Shown here in pieces: positions 4,747 to 57,493 of a stretch of DNA of 64,000 nucleotides (the stretch's first letter is position 1; each line of letters starts with the position of its first letter). This DNA is from an uncultured bacterium (GTDB lineage Bacteria; Actinomycetota; Acidimicrobiia; Acidimicrobiales; VFJN01). The DNA is taken from NCBI GenBank assembly GCA_963813485.1, contig CAWEZE010000011.1:96178-160177 (forward strand), written 5' to 3'. The notes beneath the pieces are model-generated. The model was not told where the DNA came from and did no database searches. It saw only the letters and a list, made by a program, of their open reading frames with translations. Made by a program: the position numbers and the translations under genes.

Positions 4747-5256
4747 TCAGTCGCGTTTCTCGCTCACGCTGACCCCCTTCCCGGGCTTCCAGGTCTTCAC
4801 GTACATCACGTCGTCGGCCACTGAGACCGACGAGGCGCCCAGCAGGTCGATGTCGAACGCATCGAACGATCCGACCTCGAATCGGAAGCCCACCGACTCG
4901 AATATGTCATCGGAGAACCGCGCCAATGTGTCGTGATCGGTCACGGCGGTGGCGATGCCCCACAGCTTCACGTCGCCCTGGGTGACCTGCTTGTCGGCCG
5001 TGGCGGTGTGCAGGCTGCACCGGCCGTCGCGCTGGAGGTCGCGCGACTTGGTGGAGTCGACCATCATCCCGAGCCACAGCTTGCCGTCGTGCAGCACGAG
5101 CCGATCGCCGGCGAGGACCGGCTCCACGGGGCTGATCCGCGGGAACCCGTCGCGCCGCAAGGTCGCAAGCATCATCAGCCCCGTCGCCACCAATCGCCGC
5201 TCGGCCACCTCGGCGATCTCGGGTGCTTCCTGGGTGAACTCTGTCCACGTGGCCAT
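4747..5256 (-). CDS. Pyridoxamine 5'-phosphate oxidase family (PPOX/FMN- or F420-binding split barrel) protein
   Basis: 169-aa ORF with high third-position GC. The N-terminal pattern LATLRRDGFPRISPVEPV...DGKLWLGMM is typical of the PPOX-class split barrel. Confidence 0.65.
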   Translation of the reverse strand: MATWTEFTQEAPEIAEVAERRLVATGLMMLATLRRDGFPRISPVEPVLAGDRLVLHDGKLWLGMMVDSTKSRDLQRDGRCSLHTATADKQVTQGDVKLWGIATAVTDHDTLARFSDDIFESVGFRFEVGSFDAFDIDLLGASSVSVADDVMYVKTWKPGKGVSVSEKRD

Positions 5257-5312
5257 GGCTGGACCTTACGCAGGGGGTGTGACGGTCACGGTCTCGCGCC
5301 AGACTCGTCCGG

Positions 5313-6791
5313 GTGACCGATCACGCCGAGGAGCACGGCCAACAACGCCGCCCTATCCCCAGCGCATGGGACGCCGCGCTCGACGCCGCCGCGGACCATG
5401 CCAGGAACTACCTAGCGGGCTTGCCCGACCGGCCGGTTTCCGCGCAGGCCACGGTCGACGAGCTGCGCAAGGCGCTGGCGGTTCCCCTGCCCGACGAGCC
5501 CGTCGACCCAGCCAAGGTGGTGCACGAGCTGGCCGAAGGCGCCGAGCCCGGCCTCGTGGCCACCGGCTCGCCTCGATACTTCGGCTTCGTGATCGGCGGT
5601 GCCCTTCCGGCGGCCCTCGCCGCCGACTGGTTGGCCGCCACCTGGGATCAGAACGCCGGCCTCTACGCCTGCGGGCCGCCCGCGGCGGTGGTGGAAGAGG
5701 TCGCCGGGCGCTGGGTGCTCGACCTGTTGGGTCTACCGCCGTCGGCCTCGTTCGGCTTCGTCACCGGGGGCCAGATGGCCAACTTCACCGCTTTGGCCGC
5801 GGCCCGTCACGCCGTTCTCGCCCGGCGGGGCTGGGACGTCGAGGCGCGTGGACTGTCGGGGGCTCCGACGATCCGGGTGCTGACCAGCGACCTCCGGCAC
5901 GCCACCATCGACCGGGCGCTGCGGTACCTCGGCCTCGGAACTGACGCCGCCGTCGTCATCCCCACCGGGCCCGACGCTCGGCTGTCCGTCGATGCCCTTG
6001 CCGATGCGCTCGACGACCGCTCCGGTGGTGGTCCGACCCCCACCATCGTGTGCACGCAGGCGGGCGAAGTGAACACGGGTGCCATCGATCCGCTGGCCGA
6101 GATCTGCGAGGTCGCTCACGCCGCCGGCGCCTGGGTGCACGTGGACGGTGCGTTCGGGCTGTGGGCGGCTGCCAGCCCGTCGCTGCGGCCGACGCTGGCG
6201 GGCGTGGAACAGGCCGACTCCTGGGCCACCGACTTCCACAAATGGCTCAACGTGCCCTACGACTCCGGCTTCGTCGCCTGTGCGGACCCCGATGCGCATC
6301 GCGGGGCGATGGGCGTCCGCGCCGCCTACCTCGTGCATGCCGACGACGATCCCGCCGCCGCCCGTGACCAAGTCGACTGGAATCCCGAGTTCTCGCGGCG
6401 TGGGCGCGGGTTTGCCGTCTACGCGGCGCTCCAGTCGCTGGGTCGCACGGGGGTTGCCGAACTGGTGGAGGGCTGTTGTGCCCGCGCCCGCCAGTTCGCC
6501 GAGCGGCTGGGCCGGGTCGACCGGGCGGAGGTCCTCAACGACGTCGTCCTCGACCAGGTGCTCGTGCGGTTTCGTGCCGGCCCGGGAACCGGTGACGCCG
6601 ATCCTGCGGCGGACGACGCCGTCACCCGGCGGGTCGTCGAGGCGGTGCAGGCATCGGGCGAGTGCTGGATGAGCGGCACCACCTGGCGGGGCCACGCCGC
6701 GATGCGCATCTCCGTGGTCAACTGGCAGACGACGGAGGCAGACGTCGACCGCTCGGTGGCGGCCGTCGAGAGGGCGCTGACATCGGCCTGA
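5313..6791 (+). CDS. PLP-dependent (group II) amino-acid decarboxylase family protein
   Basis: 492-aa ORF with the PLP-lysine motif DFHKWLNVPYDSG and a fold-type I layout. GTG start at 5313. Confidence 0.8.
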   Translation: MTDHAEEHGQQRRPIPSAWDAALDAAADHARNYLAGLPDRPVSAQATVDELRKALAVPLPDEPVDPAKVVHELAEGAEPGLVATGSPRYFGFVIGGALPAALAADWLAATWDQNAGLYACGPPAAVVEEVAGRWVLDLLGLPPSASFGFVTGGQMANFTALAAARHAVLARRGWDVEARGLSGAPTIRVLTSDLRHATIDRALRYLGLGTDAAVVIPTGPDARLSVDALADALDDRSGGGPTPTIVCTQAGEVNTGAIDPLAEICEVAHAAGAWVHVDGAFGLWAAASPSLRPTLAGVEQADSWATDFHKWLNVPYDSGFVACADPDAHRGAMGVRAAYLVHADDDPAAARDQVDWNPEFSRRGRGFAVYAALQSLGRTGVAELVEGCCARARQFAERLGRVDRAEVLNDVVLDQVLVRFRAGPGTGDADPAADDAVTRRVVEAVQASGECWMSGTTWRGHAAMRISVVNWQTTEADVDRSVAAVERALTSA

Positions 6792-6850
6792 GGTCGGGCG
6801 CGGCTCGCGCCAGGGGGTGGGCGGGCCCGGACCCGTCCTAGAGTTTCGGC

Positions 6851-8149
6851 ATGAGCGCAACGGCCCCCGACGTCGATTCGATCGACCTGTCCGACCTGGA
6901 CTGGTGGACCCGCCCCCTGGACGAGCGCGAGGCCGCGTTCGCGGCGCTGCGGGCCGAACGGCCCCTGGCCCCGATGAAGCTGGAGGCGCTGCCACACCTG
7001 GGCTTCCCCGAAACGCCCTACTGGTCGATCACCCGCTACGCCGACATCGTGGAGGCCAGCAGGCATCCCGAGCTGTTCTGCTCCGGTCAGGGCACCAACA
7101 TCGCCGACCTCCCGCAGGAGTTCCTCGAGTTCTTCGGTTCGATGATCAACATGGACGACCCCCGCCACGCCCGGCTGCGCCGCATCGTGTCCCGGGGCTT
7201 CACGCCCCGACAGCTCGAGACGATGCGTGCTGATGTCGAAGGCGTGGCCGCCGGCATCGTCGACGAGATCATCGAGCAGGGCGAGTGCGACTTCGTGACC
7301 GAGGTCGCGGCCCGGCTCCCCCTGCGGATCATCGTCGACATGATGGGCATCCCCCGCAGCCAGGAGCAGTTCATCTTCGACCGCACCAACATCATCCTCG
7401 GCTTCAGCGACCCGGAGTATGTCGACAACGTCGACGATCCGCCGGCCGTGACCGCGGCCATCCTCACCGCTGGCACCGAGCTGGCGCAGATGGTGCAGGA
7501 GATGGGCGAGGCCCGGCAGCACGACCCGCGCAACGACCTCGTCACGGCGCTGGTCACCAGCGAGCTCGACGGCGAGCACCTGACGCCCCAGGAGCTGGCG
7601 TCGTTCTTCATCCTGCTGGTGGTCGCCGGCAACGAGACCACCCGCAACGCCATCGCCCACGGCCTGTGGACGGTGTCCGAGCACCCGGAGCAGAGGGCGC
7701 GCTGGTTGGCGGACATCGACGGCATGACCGGCACGGCCGTCGAGGAGATCGTCCGCTGGGCGTCTCCGGTCATCCACTTCCGGCGGACCGTTACCACGGA
7801 TGGGGCTCGGCTGGGCGAGCACGAGTTCTCCGAGGGTGAGAAGGTCGTGCTCTGGTACTGGTCGGGCAACCGGGACGAGGCGGTGTTCGACGATCCGCAC
7901 ACGTTCGACGTCGGCCGGACGCCCAACGATCACATCGGATTCGGCGGTCCGGGACCCCACTTCTGCCTCGGAGCTCATCTGGCGCGACGCGAGATCTCGG
8001 TGATGTTCCGTGAGCTGCTGCGCCGGATGCCGGACATCCATGCGGTCGGGGAGCCGGCCCGGCTGCGCTCGGGCTTCATCAACGGGATCAAGCACCTTCA
8101 CTGCGAATGGACCCCGAAACCGCAGGTCAGTGGTAGTGGCAGTGTCTAG
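6851..8149 (+). CDS. Cytochrome P450
   Basis: 432-aa ORF with the heme-thiolate loop FGGPGPHFCLGAHLAR, ExxR (EEIVRWASP) and I-helix VVAGNETT. The N-terminal region resembles sterol/fatty-acid omega-hydroxylase P450s of actinobacteria (CYP124/125/142-like). That resemblance is inference only. Confidence 0.9.
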   Translation: MSATAPDVDSIDLSDLDWWTRPLDEREAAFAALRAERPLAPMKLEALPHLGFPETPYWSITRYADIVEASRHPELFCSGQGTNIADLPQEFLEFFGSMINMDDPRHARLRRIVSRGFTPRQLETMRADVEGVAAGIVDEIIEQGECDFVTEVAARLPLRIIVDMMGIPRSQEQFIFDRTNIILGFSDPEYVDNVDDPPAVTAAILTAGTELAQMVQEMGEARQHDPRNDLVTALVTSELDGEHLTPQELASFFILLVVAGNETTRNAIAHGLWTVSEHPEQRARWLADIDGMTGTAVEEIVRWASPVIHFRRTVTTDGARLGEHEFSEGEKVVLWYWSGNRDEAVFDDPHTFDVGRTPNDHIGFGGPGPHFCLGAHLARREISVMFRELLRRMPDIHAVGEPARLRSGFINGIKHLHCEWTPKPQVSGSGSV

Positions 8150-10612: not shown

Positions 10613-11113
10613 ACCGGTGTGGCAGTGCGGCAAGCCGGCGGACAGGCTGCGTCGTTAAGAGCCTGTGGTCCTCGCGACGAACCAGCCAGCCCCGGATGAC
10701 TTCGGGCGGGGGTAGGGGCTTCAGCTCAACGTGGATGCCCGTCCGGGGTCTGGGTGACGGTACCAGGCCCTGCAGGCCGGTGACGTCGACCGGATGGTCT
10801 AGGTGCCAACACCTGCAACGACTGACTCCTGGCTGCATGCACGGGCTAGTGAACGGTGACAGGCCGGGCGGGTCCTCGGGGGGCAGGTAAGCAACCCAGC
10901 CTTCGGAGTCGAGGGTGACGGTGTTGATCCACTCGAGCCGATGATTCGCGAAGGCGAGCTCCGAGCGAAGCATCACGGGCCGGACATGCGCGGCCACCGT
11001 GCGTCCCACAGAAGCGCTGCAACTGAGGGACGCACGGTGGCCGAGAACGAGCCTGTCCTATCCGGGCTCAGGGGGTCCTTGCCGCCGCTCGCTTTCGAGG
11101 GCCTCGTCGGGCC

Positions 11114-11578
11114 TCACGCGGTGGCCGGCATGACGCGGATGGTTCCCTCGAACCTCAGCGTTGCCGCGTTGACCAGTTGTCCTGTCTCGTGGACCTGGGC
11201 GCCTTCGAGGAAGCCGTCGACCACCGTCCCGTTCATGATCGCCGTCCCCGTCTGGTTGTTGAGAGTCCCGCGGAGATGGGCGGTGAACGACTCTGCTCCG
11301 GCGTGGACGATCCAGTCGAACTCGACGTGCCAGATTCGCCCCGAGCAGGGGTTCGGCCCGGTACAGCCGGTGAGGACCGTCGTCAGATCCCCATCGACAT
11401 CTCCGGAGACGCTTCCCTCCCACACGCCGACCGCGACGGCCTCCTTCTCGAACGTCAGGCGAAGCGGCGCGGTTGCGCTCGCCGGAGACGCAAGAGCAGG
11501 GCCGAAAGACAGGAGACCCGCCGCCATGAGCCCGATGAGGACCGATACCCATAGTCGCTTCGAACTGCGCACGGACAT
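11114..11578 (-). CDS. Secreted hypothetical protein with a signal peptide
   Basis: From the ATG at 11578: MSVRSSKRLWVSVLIGLMAAGLLSFGPALASPASA, then a beta-rich 120-aa body. Local GC is lower than the window average. Confidence 0.55.
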   Translation of the reverse strand: MSVRSSKRLWVSVLIGLMAAGLLSFGPALASPASATAPLRLTFEKEAVAVGVWEGSVSGDVDGDLTTVLTGCTGPNPCSGRIWHVEFDWIVHAGAESFTAHLRGTLNNQTGTAIMNGTVVDGFLEGAQVHETGQLVNAATLRFEGTIRVMPATA

Positions 11579-11928
11579 GACACCCTCCATTCGTCGTTGC
11601 CGCGTCTCACCCCAAGGGGCGAGACCGGCGGTTCGTGTCGCGACGGTGCACACAACCGGGCTCGGGTGACATCCGTACTGGCACGGAGATCAGTACGGAT
11701 TGCGGTTGCTGACGTACGATCAGCCACGTCCATCGCCGAGCGGGGCCCGCATCATCTGTTGCTACCCGAATGGCCACGTCCCGCAGGATGGCCGGCAGGC
11801 GGCTCAGGTCAGGGTCACGAAACTGGACCGGTCGCAGACTTCCCGGGCCGTCGGTGTCCTTCATCCGCCATTCCACCGGGATGGGCCGCCGGCTGGGGCG
11901 GTGTTACGCACCGAGAGACGTTGTCGAA

Positions 11929-15604: not shown

Positions 15605-16285
15605 TCACGCCGAGTTGCCAGGGCTTCCTTCCGAATCGCTGGCCGTCCGACCGGGCTCGACGCCTACCTCGGGCGCCAGCGATTCGTGGGGTCCGGGGAC
15701 CTCGACCACCGGATCGTCGTGGTCGTCCCACTCGGTGCGCAGGGCGCGGCTCATCGTGGCGTGCATCTCGTAGAGGCACGTGATGTACGTCAGCTCGAGG
15801 ATCTGCTCATCCTCCAGGTGGGCCCGCAGCGTGGCGAAGACCCCATCCGGCACCCGGCCGCCGTCGAGCACGAGCGCATCGGTGTACGCCAGCACCGCCC
15901 GCTCCACCGGTGACCAGCAGTCGGCCACCGACCACGCGGGGATCGCGGCGATCTTCTCCTCGGCCATTCCCAGCGCCCGGCACGACTTGCAGTGCTGCGA
16001 GAACACGAACTGGCTGCCGCGCGCCCAGCCGGCGCGGATCTGTCCCAGCTCCCGCAGCTCGGCGGGCAATCGCCGTTGCGGTGACCGGTACAGCGCGAAT
16101 CCGCCGACGCAGTGCTCGAGCACATCGGGGACGAGGGCGAACGTGGTCCACCAGTCGCCGGGTGTGCCGGTGGCGGTGCCGGGATCGGCCACCGGGTCGC
16201 GGCCAGCGCCGAACATGAAGTCGTACATGGCCGTGACGATCGGTGCCGCCGCCTCGTCACGGGGAACCTGGCGCAATCGGGGCAT
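15605..16285 (-). CDS. Carboxymuconolactone decarboxylase (AhpD-like) family protein
   Basis: 226-aa ORF. CMD-family layout with FSQHCKSCRALG and a second CMD repeat. Confidence 0.7.
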   Translation of the reverse strand: MPRLRQVPRDEAAAPIVTAMYDFMFGAGRDPVADPGTATGTPGDWWTTFALVPDVLEHCVGGFALYRSPQRRLPAELRELGQIRAGWARGSQFVFSQHCKSCRALGMAEEKIAAIPAWSVADCWSPVERAVLAYTDALVLDGGRVPDGVFATLRAHLEDEQILELTYITCLYEMHATMSRALRTEWDDHDDPVVEVPGPHESLAPEVGVEPGRTASDSEGSPGNSA

Positions 16286-16332
16286 GGCCTCAAGGTAGAG
16301 GGCCGAGTCGGTCGTAGACCGACGCCGTCAGC

Positions 16333-16528
16333 GGTGGCGGGTGGGGGTGGGCTGGCGGTGCTCGGCCTGGTGCTCGATCGCCAGGGCGTGGTCGCACGGA
16401 TACGGCGTCAGCAACGGCGCCACCGCGTCGCCCAGCTGGCCCGGCGGTGGCTCGTCGGCGAGCTCGAGCGTGCGCAGGCGCTCGGCGGCGGCGAACCCAC
16501 AGCTCCAGCCCGACCCCCACCCGCCACC
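16333..16528. repeat. Inverted 23/24-nt G/C-rich repeat pair flanking a 149-bp spacer
   Basis: 16333-16355 is GGTGGCGGGTGGGGGTGGGCTGG. Its reverse complement matches 16505-16528, CCAGCCCGACCCCCACCCGCCACC, with one indel. The right-hand arm and about 30 nt beyond it recur at 25067-25123 inside xseA. Confidence 0.7.
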
Positions 16529-16565
16529 CCATAATGGCGTTGGTTTTCGACCGACTCGGGAGCCC

Positions 16566-16607: not shown

Positions 16608-17333
16608 ATGCAGCCCGCTCCATCCATCGCGCCGGAGCAGACGATTCCCACCGACGGGGCCCGGCCCACGGCCGTAGCCACCGTTTCGCGCGTGGCCATC
16701 GCTGCCGTCGGTGCCTACGTCGGTGCCCAGGTGATCGCAGACATCACCAGCGTGAAGATCGGGTCGACGTTCGGTCGGGCCGTCGACATGGGCACTTTCG
16801 TCTATCCGATCACGTTCACCCTGCGCGACGTGGTCCACAAGGCCCTGGGAAGGCGGGCCGCCCGCACGCTGATCGTCACCGCCGCCGTGGTCAACCTGTT
16901 CATGGCGGTCTACCTGCAGTGGGTGGCGCGGGTGCCGAGCCACGAGAGCTACCCCCTGGGCGACGAGTTCCGCGCGGTGCTCGGCCCGCTGTGGCGCATC
17001 GTGGTGGCATCGATCATCGCCGAGGTGATCAGCGAGCTGCTCGACACCGAGGTGTACCACTGGTTCGTGCGGCGCGTGACCACTCGCTTCCAGTGGGCAC
17101 GGGTCGCCGTCAGCAATGCCGTGAGCATCCCCGTGGACAATGCGATCTTCGCCATCGGGGCATTCGGCTCGCTGCCGCTGTTGACCGACCACGCCCTGAC
17201 GCTGCCGTGGGCTGCGGTCTGGGACATCTTCGTCGTCAACCTGATGGTCAAGGGGTTGGTGTCGGCCGCGAGCCTGCCGCTGATCTACGTGTCGCCGGAC
17301 CGAGACTGGCGCAACGACCCCGACAATGCTTGA
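16608..17333 (+). CDS. yhhQ: Queuosine precursor transporter (YhhQ/DUF165, VUT family)
   Basis: From the ATG at 16608, a 241-aa polytopic membrane protein with YPITFTLRDVVHK...NAVSIPVDNAIF motifs typical of YhhQ. The upstream riboswitch supports this start; the track ORF starts too early (16341). Confidence 0.8.
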   Translation: MQPAPSIAPEQTIPTDGARPTAVATVSRVAIAAVGAYVGAQVIADITSVKIGSTFGRAVDMGTFVYPITFTLRDVVHKALGRRAARTLIVTAAVVNLFMAVYLQWVARVPSHESYPLGDEFRAVLGPLWRIVVASIIAEVISELLDTEVYHWFVRRVTTRFQWARVAVSNAVSIPVDNAIFAIGAFGSLPLLTDHALTLPWAAVWDIFVVNLMVKGLVSAASLPLIYVSPDRDWRNDPDNA

Positions 17334-23485: not shown

Positions 23486-23785
23486 CTACCTCGGGTTCCC
23501 TCGGCTCTGCGCCCCCTCGCCGGAGTCGGCGGCCGCTCCGGCCTCGTCTCCGGTCTCGTCGCGAGCGGGGGCGGGCACATCCGTCTCGGCCTCGAGCTCG
23601 GCCACTACCTGCTCGACGTCGAACCGGGCGCTCGCGATCCGATCGCGGCATAGGCGCAGCAGCTCGGCGGCCCGCCGCACACGGCTCCCCAGCACGTCGA
23701 CGTCGACCTCGTCGCCGTCGAGCTCGTCGAGGATGCCCTCCAGCTCGGCCAGCGCTTCGGCGTAACCGATCTCCCGGTCAGTCAT
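23486..23785 (-). CDS. xseB: Exodeoxyribonuclease VII small subunit
   Basis: MTDREIGYAEALAELEGILDELDGDEVDVDVL... is a typical XseB helical hairpin. It overlaps the xseA stop. The acidic C-terminal tail is longer than usual. Confidence 0.85.
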   Translation of the reverse strand: MTDREIGYAEALAELEGILDELDGDEVDVDVLGSRVRRAAELLRLCRDRIASARFDVEQVVAELEAETDVPAPARDETGDEAGAAADSGEGAQSRGNPR

Positions 23786-25331
23786 CAGCTGCTCCTCGCG
23801 CCTCCGTCACCGTGCTGCGGATGCCACCGTTGGCCAACGTCGTCGTGAGTACGTCGCCCTGCGCCACGTCTGTCGCCGAGCGCAGGACCCGGCCCTCGGC
23901 GTCGCGGGTGATCGACCAGCCCCGGGCCAGCGTGCGGGCCGGATCGAGCGCCCGCACCTGCGCCTCGAGCCGGTCGAGGTCGTGCGCGGCCGCCGCGACC
24001 AGCCGGGGCGGGCGATGCGCCAGGCGCTGACCGACGACCGCGAGCGCCAACTCGCGGCCGCGCAGGTGACCCCGTGCGCTCGACGATGTCCGGCCGGCCG
24101 AGCGCTCGAGCAGCCGAGCCGAGCGGTCGAGGGCGCCGGTCGCTGCCCGTCGTACCCGCTGGGGCCGGGCGGCGAGGTCGCGGTCGGCGGCGGCCAACCC
24201 CTGGCGGGTCGCAACCGCCACGTGGCGTCCACACGCGCTCAGCCGCGCGGCCTCGGCCCGCAGCCGGCGCCGCACCGCGGCCGCGATGTCCTGCCACACC
24301 TCGACCGTGCGGCGCTCGAAGGCCCGGACGTCGTCGACGACCGCCTGAGCGCAAGCGGTCGGCGTCTTGTAGGCCCCGTGCGCGACCTCGTCGGCGATCG
24401 TGCGGTCGATGTCGTGGCCGATGCCGGTCAGCACCGGCACATCGAGGCCGGCGATGGTTCGGGCGATGAGCTCGCTGTCGAAGGCCGCCAGGTCGGTGGT
24501 CGCGCCCCGACCCCGCACCAGCAGCACCGCGTCGACGCCCCGGGCGGCAACGGCCCCCAGCCCCCACGCCACCGACCGCGCCGCTTCGTACCCCTGCACG
24601 CGCACGTCGGCTCGGAACACCCTGAAGCCAATGCCCGAGCGACGCAGCTCGTCGAGCACGTCGTGCTCGGCGGCGCTGCCGGCGCTGGTGACCAGTCCCA
24701 ACCGCAGGGGCAGGAGCGGCGGTGGTAGCTCGGCCTGCCCCGCGAGCAGCCCCTCGGCATCTAGGCGCCGGAGCAGGCGCTCGCGATCGGCGGCCAGGCG
24801 CCCGAGCGTGAAGTCGGGATCGATGTCGGACATCTGGAGCTGCAGCCGCCCGCCCCGTGGCCAATACCCCGGCCGGCCCCGGACCCTGACCTCCGTACCG
24901 TCGACCATGCGCACGGCGTTGCCCCCGGCGCCCAGCCGGGCGTTGACCTGGCGCCGGGCGTCGTCGAACAAGACCACCGGCAGGGTGGCCAGCGGTGGCT
25001 TGGACAGGTCGCCGCCCGGTGCCGGCTCGATCAGGTCGAACCAGACGATCCGGCCCGACCCCCACCCTCCAGCCCGACCCCCACCCGCCGCCCCGTGGCG
25101 GCGTCGGCCTGCGGCCGACTCATCGGCCGTTGTCGGTGGGGTCGGGCTGTCGCCCGGCACGCCGCTTCCGCGGCCCCGGCTGAGGTTGCGGATCACGCCT
25201 CGGACCCACACCTCCTCGGGGAACGTTCGGCGCAGAGCCACCGCCACCGCCTCACCCACCTCGGCGACCGACCAGGTGGGCTCGTCGGGGTCGTCCCACA
25301 GGGTCTGGGGCGTCGGGCGGGCCTTCGGCAC
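23778..25331 (-). CDS. xseA: Exodeoxyribonuclease VII large subunit, with an insertion of about 45 aa in the N-terminal OB fold
   Basis: OB fold (VWVRGVIRNLSR ... IVWFDLIE), catalytic core (LGLVTSAGSAAEHDV..RVQGYEAA..LLVRGRGATTDLAAFD) and a coiled C-terminus. The insert GRGSGVPGDSPTPPTTADESAAGRRRHGAAGGGRAGGWGSG coincides with the repeat at 25052-25149. Confidence 0.85.
   Translation of the reverse strand: MPKARPTPQTLWDDPDEPTWSVAEVGEAVAVALRRTFPEEVWVRGVIRNLSRGRGSGVPGDSPTPPTTADESAAGRRRHGAAGGGRAGGWGSGRIVWFDLIEPAPGGDLSKPPLATLPVVLFDDARRQVNARLGAGGNAVRMVDGTEVRVRGRPGYWPRGGRLQLQMSDIDPDFTLGRLAADRERLLRRLDAEGLLAGQAELPPPLLPLRLGLVTSAGSAAEHDVLDELRRSGIGFRVFRADVRVQGYEAARSVAWGLGAVAARGVDAVLLVRGRGATTDLAAFDSELIARTIAGLDVPVLTGIGHDIDRTIADEVAHGAYKTPTACAQAVVDDVRAFERRTVEVWQDIAAAVRRRLRAEAARLSACGRHVAVATRQGLAAADRDLAARPQRVRRAATGALDRSARLLERSAGRTSSSARGHLRGRELALAVVGQRLAHRPPRLVAAAAHDLDRLEAQVRALDPARTLARGWSITRDAEGRVLRSATDVAQGDVLTTTLANGGIRSTVTEARGAADD
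25052..25149. repeat. G/C-rich palindromic repeat element embedded in-frame in xseA
   Basis: 25052-25068 and 25069-25089 are tandem GCCCGACCCCCACCC units. 25134-25149 (CGGTGGGGTCGGGCTG) is the inverted partner, with a spacer of about 45 nt. 25067-25123 resembles 16503-16557, including 23 consecutive identical nt. Confidence 0.65.
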
Positions 25332-25449
25332 AGCGCCGACGTTAGCGACCGGGTATGACGGTGTCGGTCGTCAGATCGAGGCCGCTAGGGGTGGCGGTCG
25401 GAGGTCGAGCGGGAGTGACAGTCGAAGCCGACCCGGGGTTAGGGTCGAG

Positions 25450-54854: not shown

Positions 54855-54921
54855 GCCAGGACAGTACGGGTCGGTCGCAGACCGACGCCATCAAGGGGCG
54901 GCGGGCGGGGGTCGGGCTGGA

Positions 54922-54946: not shown

Positions 54947-57493
54947 TCACACGATGGAGGACGCGCGGGTGACCGGGACCGCGCCTTCACCGTCCGGGTG
55001 GACGCCGTCCCCCGCGGCGACGGGGCGCCCCTCCTCGGGGGTCCCCACCGACCGCTCGGCGGTCCGCCGCAGGCGCAGGAACGCCAGCACGGCCACGACG
55101 TAGATCGCGAGCGCCGCCGTCTGCACCGATCGGAACCCAAAGGTCATCGACAGGATGGTCGTGAGCACCGAGCCGATGACCGAGAAGAAGCCGTTCACCG
55201 CCCAGCCCCAGGCGCTGTACTCCTCGCCGTGCTCGGTGAGCCCGGACACCAGGCGCAAGCCGAAGGGCATGAACATCCCGAGGCACACGCCGAGGGGCGC
55301 GAGGACGAGCACGGTGACGAGCACTCGCACGCCGAGCGACGCCGACAGCAGCGCATCGGTGAGCGAGTCGAGTCCGAAACGGTAGAAGAGCGTGAGCCCG
55401 GCGAGCGCCACCAGGACCGCCGGCAGGGGCGTCCACGTCGGGAGTGCGGCCAGGCGCCGGCTCAAGAGGGCGCCGATGCCCGTGAACACGAGGATCGACG
55501 CCAACGTGACTGTGAGCGAGTAGGTGGGGTAGCCGAGGAAGAGCACCAGCCGCTGGATCATCGTGATCTCGAAGAACATGAAGCCGAGTCCGAGGGCGGC
55601 GAAGTACACCCCCGACATGCCCTTCGACGGCAGGGCCCTCCACGTCCGGCGAACGGCCACGAACGGCAACAGCAGGAACACCGCGGCGTAGACGATGGAT
55701 AGCGCCAGCAGCAGGAGCAGGACCCGCTCGCCGACCATGTCGCTCTCGCTGTCACGGATGTCGATGGACTTGGTGATGTCGCCGAGCACGTCGGGGAAGG
55801 CGCTGAAGTGCCAGAAGAAGGGCGCGTCGTCGGTGACCGCGTCGATGGCGCGGTCGTGCCCGGCCACCAGGTCGTCCACCTCCTCCTCGCTGGCTGCGCC
55901 CGCCAGCTGGTTGACCAGGTGGTCGCCGAGCGCCGCAGTGTCGTCGCGGTCGCCGGGCGCATAGATCGGCACGTTGTTCGGGACGTTGGCGACGCTCTCG
56001 GAGAAGGCGTCGACCTCGCCGGTCGTGAACGGGGTGCGCTTGACGATGATCGTCGACAGGGCACCCCCTTCGGGCGGGAGGTACGCCGCCACCATGATGT
56101 GCTGGCTGGGGTCGTCGACGCCGAAGCGGCGGAGTGCCTCCCGGGCCGTCACCACGTAGCGGCTGGTGCGGTTCGGGCGACCCTGGAAGTCGAGCTCGCC
56201 GAACTGCACGACCATGACGCCATCGTCGGTGAGATGGTCGAGCGTTTCCTCGATCATCTCGGCCGTGTAGAGGTAGCTCTCCGACAGCACGAAGGCACCC
56301 GAGGAGGCGGCGTTGTTGGCGGCGTAGCTGTCGGGCGCCACGTACCACACGAGGTCGTACGACCCGTCGCTCCGCGCCAGGTAGTTGCGGGCGTCGCCTT
56401 GGTGGAGGTCGACCTCGGGCCGTTCCGGCAGATGCCCGGTGTAATCCGCGAAGTGGTCGGTCAGCAGCGACACCGTGACGGGGTTCAGCTCGACCGCCTG
56501 GATGTCCGGGGCGCCGAAGTAGAGCGAGGCGAGGATCTCCTGGCCGCCCGCCGATCCGACGATCAGCTCGTGCTCGGGCGCGTCGCCGAGCACGCCGAAG
56601 GGGATCGAACGCGTATCGGTATCGAAGCGGCCGAGCGAGTCGACGTCGCCGTTGAACCGCCACAGTCCGGAGCCGAACAGCCCGTCATGGAGGAGGAGCC
56701 GGTTCTCGTCGGTGAACGTCTCCGAGACGTCGACGCGGAACACCGGCCCCCAGTCCGAGTAGACGACCCCGCGCTTGTCGGGCGCCAGGTGCTTGCTGGC
56801 CTCGGTCCGGACGTCGGGCAGGTCGTCCTGGACGACCACCGCCACCGCGAGCACGGCGGTGAGGACCGCGGCGCCGGCGCGGTAGATGGCCCGCGGCGGC
56901 ACCGTCAGGAGGCCCACCACGGCGAAGATAAGGGCAGAGACCATCACCACCCCCGGCGGGTCCAGCCGGATGATGAGCGGGATGGCCAGCAGGCAGCCGA
57001 GCCCAGCGCCCACGAGGTCGGAGAAGTAGAGCCGCCCGACACGGTCGCCGGCGCGGCCGAGCATCGTCGCCACGATCACGCCCAGGGCGACGAACGAGGC
57101 GAACAGGCAGAAGGAGATGAGGACGAGCCGACCCAGGTTGGCGAACGACGAGCCCGATCCGTAGTCCCAGATCGCGATGGTGTTCAGCGGCAGGCTGGCG
57201 ATAGCCCAGTAGCCGAGGGGGATGCTCACCGCACCGACCAGAGAGCACACGGCCACGACCCACTCGGTGCTGGCGCGGCGGATCGGGGTCCAGATGGCCA
57301 CAGCGATGCCGCCCGAGCCGATGCCGAGCAGGCTCAGCCCGATGACCAGGTAGGTGAAGTAGTAGAGGAGCTTGTAGGAGACGATGCGGGTGTAGGCCAC
57401 CTCCAGCAGGAGGCCGGCGAGGGAGACGAGCAGCAAGGCGAGCCACGGCGGCAGCCTGGTTCTGTCGGTCGTGTTTGTAGCCATGTCGGTCAC
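54947..57493 (-). CDS. Fused polytopic membrane / spermidine-synthase-like (class I methyltransferase-fold) protein
   Basis: 848 aa. About 7 N-terminal TM helices, then a central soluble domain with ELIVGSAGGQEILASLYFGAPDIQAVELNP..HQGDARNYL..YDLVWYVAPDS (aminopropyltransferase-like), then about 6 C-terminal TM helices. Confidence 0.75.
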   Translation of the reverse strand: MTDMATNTTDRTRLPPWLALLLVSLAGLLLEVAYTRIVSYKLLYYFTYLVIGLSLLGIGSGGIAVAIWTPIRRASTEWVVAVCSLVGAVSIPLGYWAIASLPLNTIAIWDYGSGSSFANLGRLVLISFCLFASFVALGVIVATMLGRAGDRVGRLYFSDLVGAGLGCLLAIPLIIRLDPPGVVMVSALIFAVVGLLTVPPRAIYRAGAAVLTAVLAVAVVVQDDLPDVRTEASKHLAPDKRGVVYSDWGPVFRVDVSETFTDENRLLLHDGLFGSGLWRFNGDVDSLGRFDTDTRSIPFGVLGDAPEHELIVGSAGGQEILASLYFGAPDIQAVELNPVTVSLLTDHFADYTGHLPERPEVDLHQGDARNYLARSDGSYDLVWYVAPDSYAANNAASSGAFVLSESYLYTAEMIEETLDHLTDDGVMVVQFGELDFQGRPNRTSRYVVTAREALRRFGVDDPSQHIMVAAYLPPEGGALSTIIVKRTPFTTGEVDAFSESVANVPNNVPIYAPGDRDDTAALGDHLVNQLAGAASEEEVDDLVAGHDRAIDAVTDDAPFFWHFSAFPDVLGDITKSIDIRDSESDMVGERVLLLLLALSIVYAAVFLLLPFVAVRRTWRALPSKGMSGVYFAALGLGFMFFEITMIQRLVLFLGYPTYSLTVTLASILVFTGIGALLSRRLAALPTWTPLPAVLVALAGLTLFYRFGLDSLTDALLSASLGVRVLVTVLVLAPLGVCLGMFMPFGLRLVSGLTEHGEEYSAWGWAVNGFFSVIGSVLTTILSMTFGFRSVQTAALAIYVVAVLAFLRLRRTAERSVGTPEEGRPVAAGDGVHPDGEGAVPVTRASSIV

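Follow-up and report, generated by a model that had tools for sequence, protein, structure and literature searches.

Background

Rickettsia palindromic elements (RPEs) are found in-frame inside unrelated housekeeping genes, to which they add a peptide without destroying the protein, and bacterial MITEs (transposable elements of the miniature inverted-repeat type), small non-autonomous repeats that provide promoters or terminators, occasionally form in-frame fusions with host open reading frames (ORFs); the 2024 review of MITEs from which both statements are taken names no actinobacterial case (PMC10969869). We report the analysis of a 64,000-nt stretch of DNA, referred to throughout as the window, from contig CAWEZE010000011.1 of an uncultured member of the Acidimicrobiales. 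In this window xseA, the gene for the large subunit of exodeoxyribonuclease VII, carries an in-frame insert which is real and very probably a translated copy from a family of short, structured repeats. A literature search on repetitive extragenic palindromic (REP) and MITE elements of the Acidimicrobiia, and on RPEs in Actinobacteria, returned no description of this family, which is the first case found of RPE-like in-frame repeats in a high-GC actinobacterial lineage.

A first-pass annotation of the window, made from the sequence by a model, had likened the element to RPEs. The likeness holds for behaviour: both are short, multi-copy hairpin repeats with intergenic copies as well as in-frame copies in housekeeping genes, in the present family in xseA, boxC, a gene for an AraC-type regulator and probably a gene for a GH3 enzyme. 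It does not hold for the notion of a simple palindrome. The family is a modular, directional, promoter-proximal repeat rather than a simple palindrome with terminal inverted repeats, and it differs from RPEs in this directionality, in its promoter-proximal position and in its tandem arrays. The unit measures ~55 nt (114 nt in the composite form) against ~100-150 bp for RPEs, and some 4 of 43 family sites are coding whereas RPEs lie mostly within ORFs. The host, furthermore, is a high-GC actinobacterium and not an AT-rich alphaproteobacterium; the likeness is one of behaviour, and sequence homology is implausible from phylum and base composition (70% G+C).

With the REP, BIME and REPIN elements the family shares a short imperfect palindrome, many copies, a mostly extragenic location that includes the ends of convergent genes, and the absence of terminal inverted repeats and of a clear target-site duplication. 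Its arrays, however, run head-to-tail and not as the inverted pairs of REPINs, a long C-rich box lies outside the palindrome, and its sequence is conserved across at least 11 species, whereas REP families are usually species-specific. The mycobacterial interspersed repetitive units (MIRUs), reportedly described by Supply et al. in 1997/2000 as intergenic units of 46-100 nt that stand in tandem and are oriented with the flanking genes, resemble the family in their actinobacterial host and in having tandem intergenic units that follow the direction of the flanking genes and vary in number between close relatives. As described, MIRUs are intercistronic within operons and have small overlapping ORFs, whereas the present repeats often stand upstream of leaderless-type promoters, between divergent genes or in-frame. 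From MITEs such as Correia/NEMIS, ERIC, BOX and Nezha the family is set apart because the defining terminal inverted repeats are missing from its consensus. In behaviour the family is closest to RPEs, its genomic habit resembles that of REPs and MIRUs, and by sequence it belongs to none of the families tested.

Short structured repeats that add segments to proteins are known from Rickettsia and are met here in free-living, high-GC Acidimicrobiales. The empty, long and short alleles that we describe at a single codon represent a natural experiment on the tolerance of the OB fold and, if the family proves functional, it would help to work out how promoters are built in a class that has received little study. 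The repeat is also of concern for annotation, as it inflates N-terminal ORF calls and creates low-complexity 'domains'.

Results and discussion

An in-frame insert in the OB fold of XseA

The gene and the inserted block occupy the following positions.

23778-25331, minus strand: xseA, exodeoxyribonuclease VII large subunit, 517 aa with a GTG start, from the ORF list
25050-25169, plus strand: insert block of 120 nt, a composite copy of the repeat that lies antisense to xseA and encodes residues ~55-94 (..SGVPGDSPTPPTTADESAAGRRRHGAAGGGRAGGWGSGR)

The product matches Pfam Exonuc_VII_L (2.4e-63) and PDB entry 8txr (E 6e-30), and its match to the Pfam OB fold (tRNA_anti_2) begins only at residue 96, the domain being split by the insert. 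XseA homologues at E <= 1e-10 number 1352. The closest orthologues are 479 aa long, are 83-86% identical to the window's protein and read NLSRGRGG-IVWFDLIE, without an insert. Among the 60 best homologues the site is empty in 56 (NLSRGRGG-IVWFDL), many of these again at 83-86% identity; at the window's insert site P0001 is longer by 19 residues and P0002 by 18, and the last two are N-terminally truncated and do not cover it. The insert is thus lineage-specific.

The insert site lies between OB-fold strands β1 and β2. The first-pass annotation had placed a Gly/Pro/Arg-rich insertion of about 45 aa between NLSR and IVWFDLIE; its place is correct but its length must be revised, since the 120 nt of the window (25050-25169) stand against six nt (CCCGCC on the plus strand) in empty orthologues, which gives a net gain of 114 nt or 38 aa. 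We aligned the xseA nucleotide sequence of the window with empty alleles (L087-L090) and with short alleles (L083-L086). The empty alleles have six bases, GGCGGG or GGTGGG, at the site, and the closest orthologues read ...GGTCGC GGCGGG ATCGTG... across it. The short alleles lack one 19-nt C-rich box (C-box) and 38 nt that span the main hairpin and the linker, and both ends of the insert are common to them and to the window. All of the differences in allele length (114, 57 and 54 nt) are multiples of three, and three lineages besides that of the window carry the shortened insert, in-frame and at the same site.

The dN/dS ratio of xseA against its relatives is ~0.13, with values of 0.12-0.17 in every pair, pairs in which both members carry an insert included, and purifying selection on xseA has therefore been kept since the insertion; the gene, to judge from these ratios, is still functional. 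For the OB-fold region alone the ratio is 0.08-0.23 (0.09-0.23 where both members carry the insert). In an AlphaFold model of XseA built from 48 sequences, residues 50-93 have a pLDDT below 50 and no secondary structure and lie between strands 41-48 and 94-102, in an OB fold that is itself modelled with moderate confidence (pLDDT 60-69). The surface loop considered by the first-pass annotation is borne out to this extent: the insert is predicted to be a disordered surface loop compatible with the host fold. A search of the 42-aa insert peptide, a short and low-complexity query, against 1.84 billion representative proteins gave a single match, to the unrelated repeat protein P0121.

Architecture of the inserted copy

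Read on the plus strand, antisense to xseA, the inserted copy is built from a series of modules.

25049-25086, plus strand: two tandem 19-nt C-boxes, TCCGGCCCGACCCCCACCC + TCCAGCCCGACCCCCACCC, which appear on the xseA sense strand as G-runs matching a canonical G-quadruplex motif
25054-25094, minus strand: G-quadruplex (G4) motif, on the xseA sense strand
25086-25103, plus strand: hairpin H1, CGCCGCC-CCGT-GGCGGCG, from sequence
25103-25119, plus strand: hairpin H2, GTCGGCC-TGC-GGCCGAC, the palindromic stem that is conserved in the family
25120-25169, plus strand: linker, degenerate second hairpin module (CGGGC-TGTC-GCCCG, 25143-25156) and tail

The tandem units noted in the first pass are present as two 15-nt GCCCGACCCCCACCC units, at 25053-25067 and 25072-25086, which lie 19 nt apart. 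The G-rich stretch at 25134-25149 pairs with the second C-box, 25070-25081 forming a perfect 12-nt inverted pairing with 25138-25149, and in the predicted fold an outer stem encloses H1 and H2. This copy folds more stably than shuffled sequences on both strands (z = -3.7 and -3.3). The inverted partner that had been proposed is accordingly real in this copy, but as a feature of the family it had to be abandoned: other composite and single copies have the linker and second hairpin at that position, and terminal inverted repeats are particular to the xseA copy.

The recurrence reported at 16503-16557, with 23 consecutive identical nucleotides, was reproduced. Positions 25067-25123 align without gaps to 16503-16559, with 45 of 57 positions identical and the first 23 identical throughout. 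The best matches to the core come from other genomes, namely the L051 copy (53/55 identical), which adjoins an unrelated gene on its upstream side, and the L036 copy (53/56). The full composite architecture of doubled C-box, both hairpins, linker and second hairpin is common to the xseA copy and to L036, L051, L068 and L075, the last four being located upstream of unrelated genes.

A modular repeat family in the Acidimicrobiales

Each unit of the family combines a 19-nt C-rich box, which can occur more than once, with two hairpins, first a weak one (CGCCR..YGGCG) and then a strong one (GTCGGYC-N3-5-GRCCGAC); a variable tail comes after the consensus, TCCAGCCCGACCCCCRCCCGCCRCCCCGTGATGGCGTCGGYCTNCGRCCGAC. 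Allowing up to three mismatches, the 21-mer CCAGCCCGACCCCCACCCGCC occurs four times in the window against 0.02 occurrences expected from shuffles. In a scan for CAGCCCGACCCCCRCCCGCC, with one genome per species, we found 82 loci, of which ~45 continue with the same ~35 nt as in the window. These full copies all come from 11 metagenome-assembled genomes (MAGs) of Acidimicrobiales or unclassified Actinomycetota, and nearly all are intergenic; the remaining matches (Streptomyces, Nocardia, Methylobacterium and others) have nothing beyond the 20-mer in common with them. A profile (nhmmer) built from 36 copies gave 74 matches, five of them in the window, so that the further genomic copies on which the first reading of a repeat depended are at hand both within the window and in the 11 MAGs.

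25068-25121, plus strand: repeat copy in xseA, extent of the profile match
16504-16557, plus strand: copy B2 (nhmmer E 5e-13), ~50 nt upstream of a Vut_1 transporter gene (Pfam; ATG at 16608 after GGAGG)
16305-16354, minus strand: copy B1 (nhmmer E 1.5e-8), 19 nt upstream of a CMD-family gene (start at 16285) and followed by TACCTT + 6 nt + ATG
54869-54921, minus strand: copy C (nhmmer E 8e-14), placed after the stop of the upstream gene and before TACTGT + 6 nt + GTG (54854) of an acyl-CoA dehydrogenase gene; its 21-mer match, missed in the first pass, lies at 54900-54920, minus strand
25362-25410, minus strand: degenerate copy, a weak match (nhmmer E 6e-4) in the region between xseA and an MBL-hydrolase gene, in the same direction as xseA

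Across 56 distinct copies, 96% of the cells of the H2 stem are paired, and one of its base pairs covaries, being U-A in 28 copies and C-G in 22. The H1 stem is weak across the family, with 4 conserved bp and 83% of cells paired; it was dismissed as a covarying stem because its R-Y pair is statistically independent. An attempt to assign the transcribed strand from wobble pairs at the covarying H2 pair (column 43-50) was uninformative, with 3 U·G against 3 C·A. The C-box is repeated up to four times in L075, and whole units form head-to-tail arrays in L007, L057, L075, L087 and L089. Some of the intergenic copies show GTCAC at their left side and ACTGTCAC at their right, a pattern that might represent a duplication, a favoured target or a piece of the unit itself; only in a subset of copies does TGTCAC stand at both flanks. 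No Rfam family other than tRNA matched the window at the gathering score, and around copies B and C there was no match up to E = 1. A scan of viral contigs for the C-box likewise gave no match.

Genes around the copies were called with a simple GC3-based caller and then inspected by hand, which resolved ~43 independent sites. At least 22 of these are found upstream of a gene whose reading direction is that of the repeat, about 6 directly adjoin the end of a convergently oriented gene, and ~39 are intergenic, leaving 4 inside coding sequence. Eight further copies that at first appeared to be in genes (L013, L033, L035, L038, L047, L067, L076 and L078) were rejected; the caller had over-extended the N-termini, and the upstream flanks are without coding signal.

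In-frame copies in other genes

The insertion into xseA has counterparts in other genes. In L062, a BoxC benzoyl-CoA-dihydrodiol lyase (E 2.6e-189 to PDB 2w3p) has, relative to that structure, exactly 18 additional residues, ..EEVSAGDRRHHGAAGGGRAG.., ahead of its VFCSGAN motif, and the copy splits Pfam ECH_1. Two orthologous AraC-type regulators from two MAGs (L042 and L074) carry LQPDPHPPPRDGVGLRPTQ between the two halves of HTH_18; this regulator gave no sequence match in a search against the PDB. Finally, a two-domain GH3 enzyme (L017) has VQPDPHPPPCDGVGLTTDS at its domain boundary, in the interdomain linker; this copy is probably in-frame as well, but the case is less certain than the others. 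Both antisense insertions are read in one frame and both sense insertions in a second one. The two AraC-type genes differ from each other at 2 of 57 nt in the element, compared with 13.5% in the flanks (dS 0.13 vs 0.41).

Copy-number change among relatives

The number of units upstream of xseA varies: L083, L086 and L091 have none, the window has one degenerate unit, L087 has two and L089 three. All of them face the same direction as xseA, and their spacing is 54-56 nt. In the P0001 lineage, the corresponding region of L083 (~2860-2990) holds approximately seven tandem units of an unrelated ~14-nt motif (GGCGGTTGTCAGA / GGCGGTTGGCTGA). The same contig has an IS3-type transposase gene (HTH_Tnp_1, 4920-5887) after xseB, where other relatives have a polyprenyl synthase gene, and L090 has an rve_3 fragment near its end.

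Change is also seen at copies B1 and B2, which, at a distance of 150 nt, are the sole inverted pair in the window. In the syntenic metagenome contig L091, whose nucleotide identity to the window is 88-91%, neither repeat copy is present, and the CMD-family and Vut_1 genes enclose an intact α/β-hydrolase gene (10972-11862). The window retains a 140-nt remnant of this gene (16353-16492, 78% identity), bracketed by the two outward-facing copies (16305-16354 and 16504-16557), which replace the 5' 449 nt and the 3' 336 nt of the gene.

Among the xseA alleles, the short ones are clearly of common origin, since their deletion structure is the same. For the whole set, one insertion event with plain vertical inheritance thereafter was considered and rejected, as the insert-bearing alleles are not monophyletic; it is therefore not the whole story, and recombination between lineages, long-lived polymorphism, repeated or exact loss, or repeated gain is needed to account for the allele pattern.

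Origin of the insert

We propose that the Gly codons of the β1-β2 loop took up a copy, oriented against the gene, of a composite unit made of two C-boxes, both hairpins, the linker and the further, degenerate hairpin. The copied unit lengthens the gene by 114 nt and is free of stop codons in the frame used, so that the reading frame continues; the segment would be made as a disordered surface loop, with the enzyme staying in use, and later in-frame deletions of 57 or 54 nt would have produced the shorter alleles of the relatives. Our best guess for the route is the general copy-and-insert process of the family, acting from a distant composite copy, and we take the insert to be a tolerated passenger rather than a useful addition.

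Several observations weigh against this account. That the inserted segment is translated we infer from the sequence, and this step counts among the weaker points. The family is without terminal inverted repeats, the alignment of filled with empty alleles reveals no unambiguous target-site duplication at xseA, and no transposase linked to the family was found in the MAG stretches of 8-20 kb that were read, in which RAYT was not searched for. For loci chosen through an exact 20-mer, copies are as similar within a genome (0.848) as between genomes (0.843), with no sign of recent bursts; this likeness is easier to reconcile with DNA under constraint, possibly functional, than with selfish spread in recent times. 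Besides the lack of monophyly of the four insert-bearing alleles, an empty and a short allele (L078 and L091) form the closest pair, at 7.2% nucleotide distance, all other pairs being at 10.6-15.9%. Together, the likeness of the copies, the conservation of the element and the conflict with the tree point to sequence constraint or gene conversion more than to a purely selfish element that spread in recent bursts. Lastly, the exact long allele of the window was found in no other assembly, either by an exact-product record search or in a scan of metagenomes, where the junction of xseA and insert occurs in one contig only, L091, with the short allele. As repeats are a cause of assembly errors, this last point might be taken to indicate a mis-assembly across the repeat, or else a chance resemblance of G/C tracts. 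Either is scarcely credible: chance is excluded by four matches to the 21-mer where 0.02 were expected and by a core identical at 53 of 55 positions to a copy in another genome, reading frame and coding signal run on at both sides of the insert, and independent assemblies from several samples (L083-L086 and L091) have an insert at the same codon with the same ends.

An alternative source for the insert is xseA's own upstream array, 100-350 nt away, from which it could have been copied in the opposite orientation by template switch or intramolecular recombination. The intragenic copy is indeed inverted relative to that array, the CCGG variant of its first C-box occurs in upstream arrays too, relatives with an empty site have two or three good upstream copies while the insert-bearing lineages have none or one, and the failure to see target-site duplication and terminal inverted repeats at xseA is in keeping with such a route. 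The empty target GGGGTCGCGGCGGG also resembles an inverted C-box at ~13 of 15 positions, a resemblance judged by eye alone. Yet the core is slightly closer to the distant composite copies (53/55 and 53/56) than to the upstream xseA copies (50-51/55), and the upstream arrays of the relatives are simple tandem units without the linker and second-hairpin architecture that the insert has in common with L036, L051 and L068. Moreover, the in-frame copies in boxC and in the AraC-type and GH3 genes have no other copy within the several kb available, and a non-local route must therefore exist. We regard the local origin as possible, though on balance rather doubtful, and prefer the distant composite copy as the source.

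Two further explanations would have the insert retained for a function and not merely tolerated. One makes it an antisense or internal regulatory element, or a G-quadruplex that throttles translation of the xseA mRNA. The 30 nt of the C-box and H1 part do not differ between the window and the short alleles, although these genes have diverged by ~0.34 at synonymous sites, which, like the conservation of the AraC-type element relative to its flanks, would support functional DNA or RNA; a canonical G-quadruplex motif is present on the antisense strand of 51 of 57 copies, which for this copy is the mRNA strand of xseA, and 3 of the 12 canonical motifs in the window (64 kb at 70% G+C) are repeat copies. 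However, the short alleles persist without H2 and one of the C-boxes, most relatives live without any insert, and gene conversion among copies could explain the conservation of the element equally well, so that we think this explanation unlikely. The other sees in the insert a domesticated protein loop, an Arg/Gly-rich extension of the OB fold that improves the binding of single-stranded DNA. It draws on the location in the β1-β2 loop, on the Arg- and Gly-rich peptide and on the persistence of the insert, with its frame intact, in at least four lineages. Neither length nor sequence is conserved as protein, though, the insert measuring 38, 19 or 18 aa and its 5' part being ~20% diverged; where the insert is present its conservation is at the nucleotide level, close relatives lack it, and it is predicted to be disordered. 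We consider domestication very unlikely and retain the tolerated passenger as our interpretation.

Promoter context of the repeats

Repeat copies often end right before a TANNNT box that lies 6-9 nt ahead of a start codon. C(C)GTAYNNT comes immediately after the hairpin in 16 copies (at least 13 sites), with the start codon 6-9 nt on, and copies C and B1 of the window have this order of hairpin, -10 box and start codon. A -10 box adjacent to a hairpin, with the start 6-9 nt on, corresponds to the leaderless promoter layout of actinobacteria known from mycobacterial maps of transcription start sites. Six other sites, those of xseA, uvrB-like and radA-like genes among them, have the tail ACTGTCAY + 8 nt + TANNNT + 7-9 nt + start codon. 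Their layout fits the mycobacterial RecA-NDp (PafBC) motif, tTGTCRgtg-8nt-TannnT (PMC5656591). Upstream of xseA in the window we find a segment of this kind.

25332-25360, minus strand: promoter-like segment of xseA, CGTCATAC + 8 nt + TAACGT + 7 nt + GTG start

This segment resembles the RecA-NDp (PafBC) motif and would imply a leaderless transcript. The arrangement (T/C)GTCAYAS + 8 nt + TAACGT + 7 nt + GTG stands before xseA and its orthologues, and an identical layout precedes a uvrB-like and a radA-like gene in related MAGs; the loci concerned are the window, L036/L080, L037, L078 and L086-L091. These sequences suggest a PafBC-type DNA-damage regulon with leaderless transcripts in these Acidimicrobiales. 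In L038, a repeat copy and a TACTCT box lie directly upstream of a gene (6487-7410, minus strand) for a WYL + WCX regulator, which is PafB/PafC-like (Pfam 1.6e-17 and 1.3e-15).

It is a tentative idea, and one we think improbable, that the family is a conserved, mobile, promoter-proximal module, in which a C-rich box (an i-motif, with a G-quadruplex on the opposite strand) and a hairpin are held at a fixed distance from a leaderless -10 box. Were this so, a host factor would bind the module, and its moves would rewire transcription; several of the genes concerned are DNA-repair genes with RecA-NDp/PafBC-like boxes (xseA, uvrB-like and radA-like), and the copy in xseA would place a G-quadruplex and a strong stem-loop in the mRNA of a damage-inducible nuclease and so modulate its expression.

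Neighbouring features of the window

Three other features of the window adjoin the subjects above or complete its annotation. An ORF of 848 aa directly upstream of copy C has a strong coding signal and no Pfam match at E <= 1e-5, and the tRNA gene is the sole RNA gene detected in the window.

23486-23785: xseB, the 3' neighbour of xseA, which it overlaps by 8 nt
54947-57493, minus strand: ORF of 848 aa
62029-62118, minus strand: tRNA-Ser (CGA)

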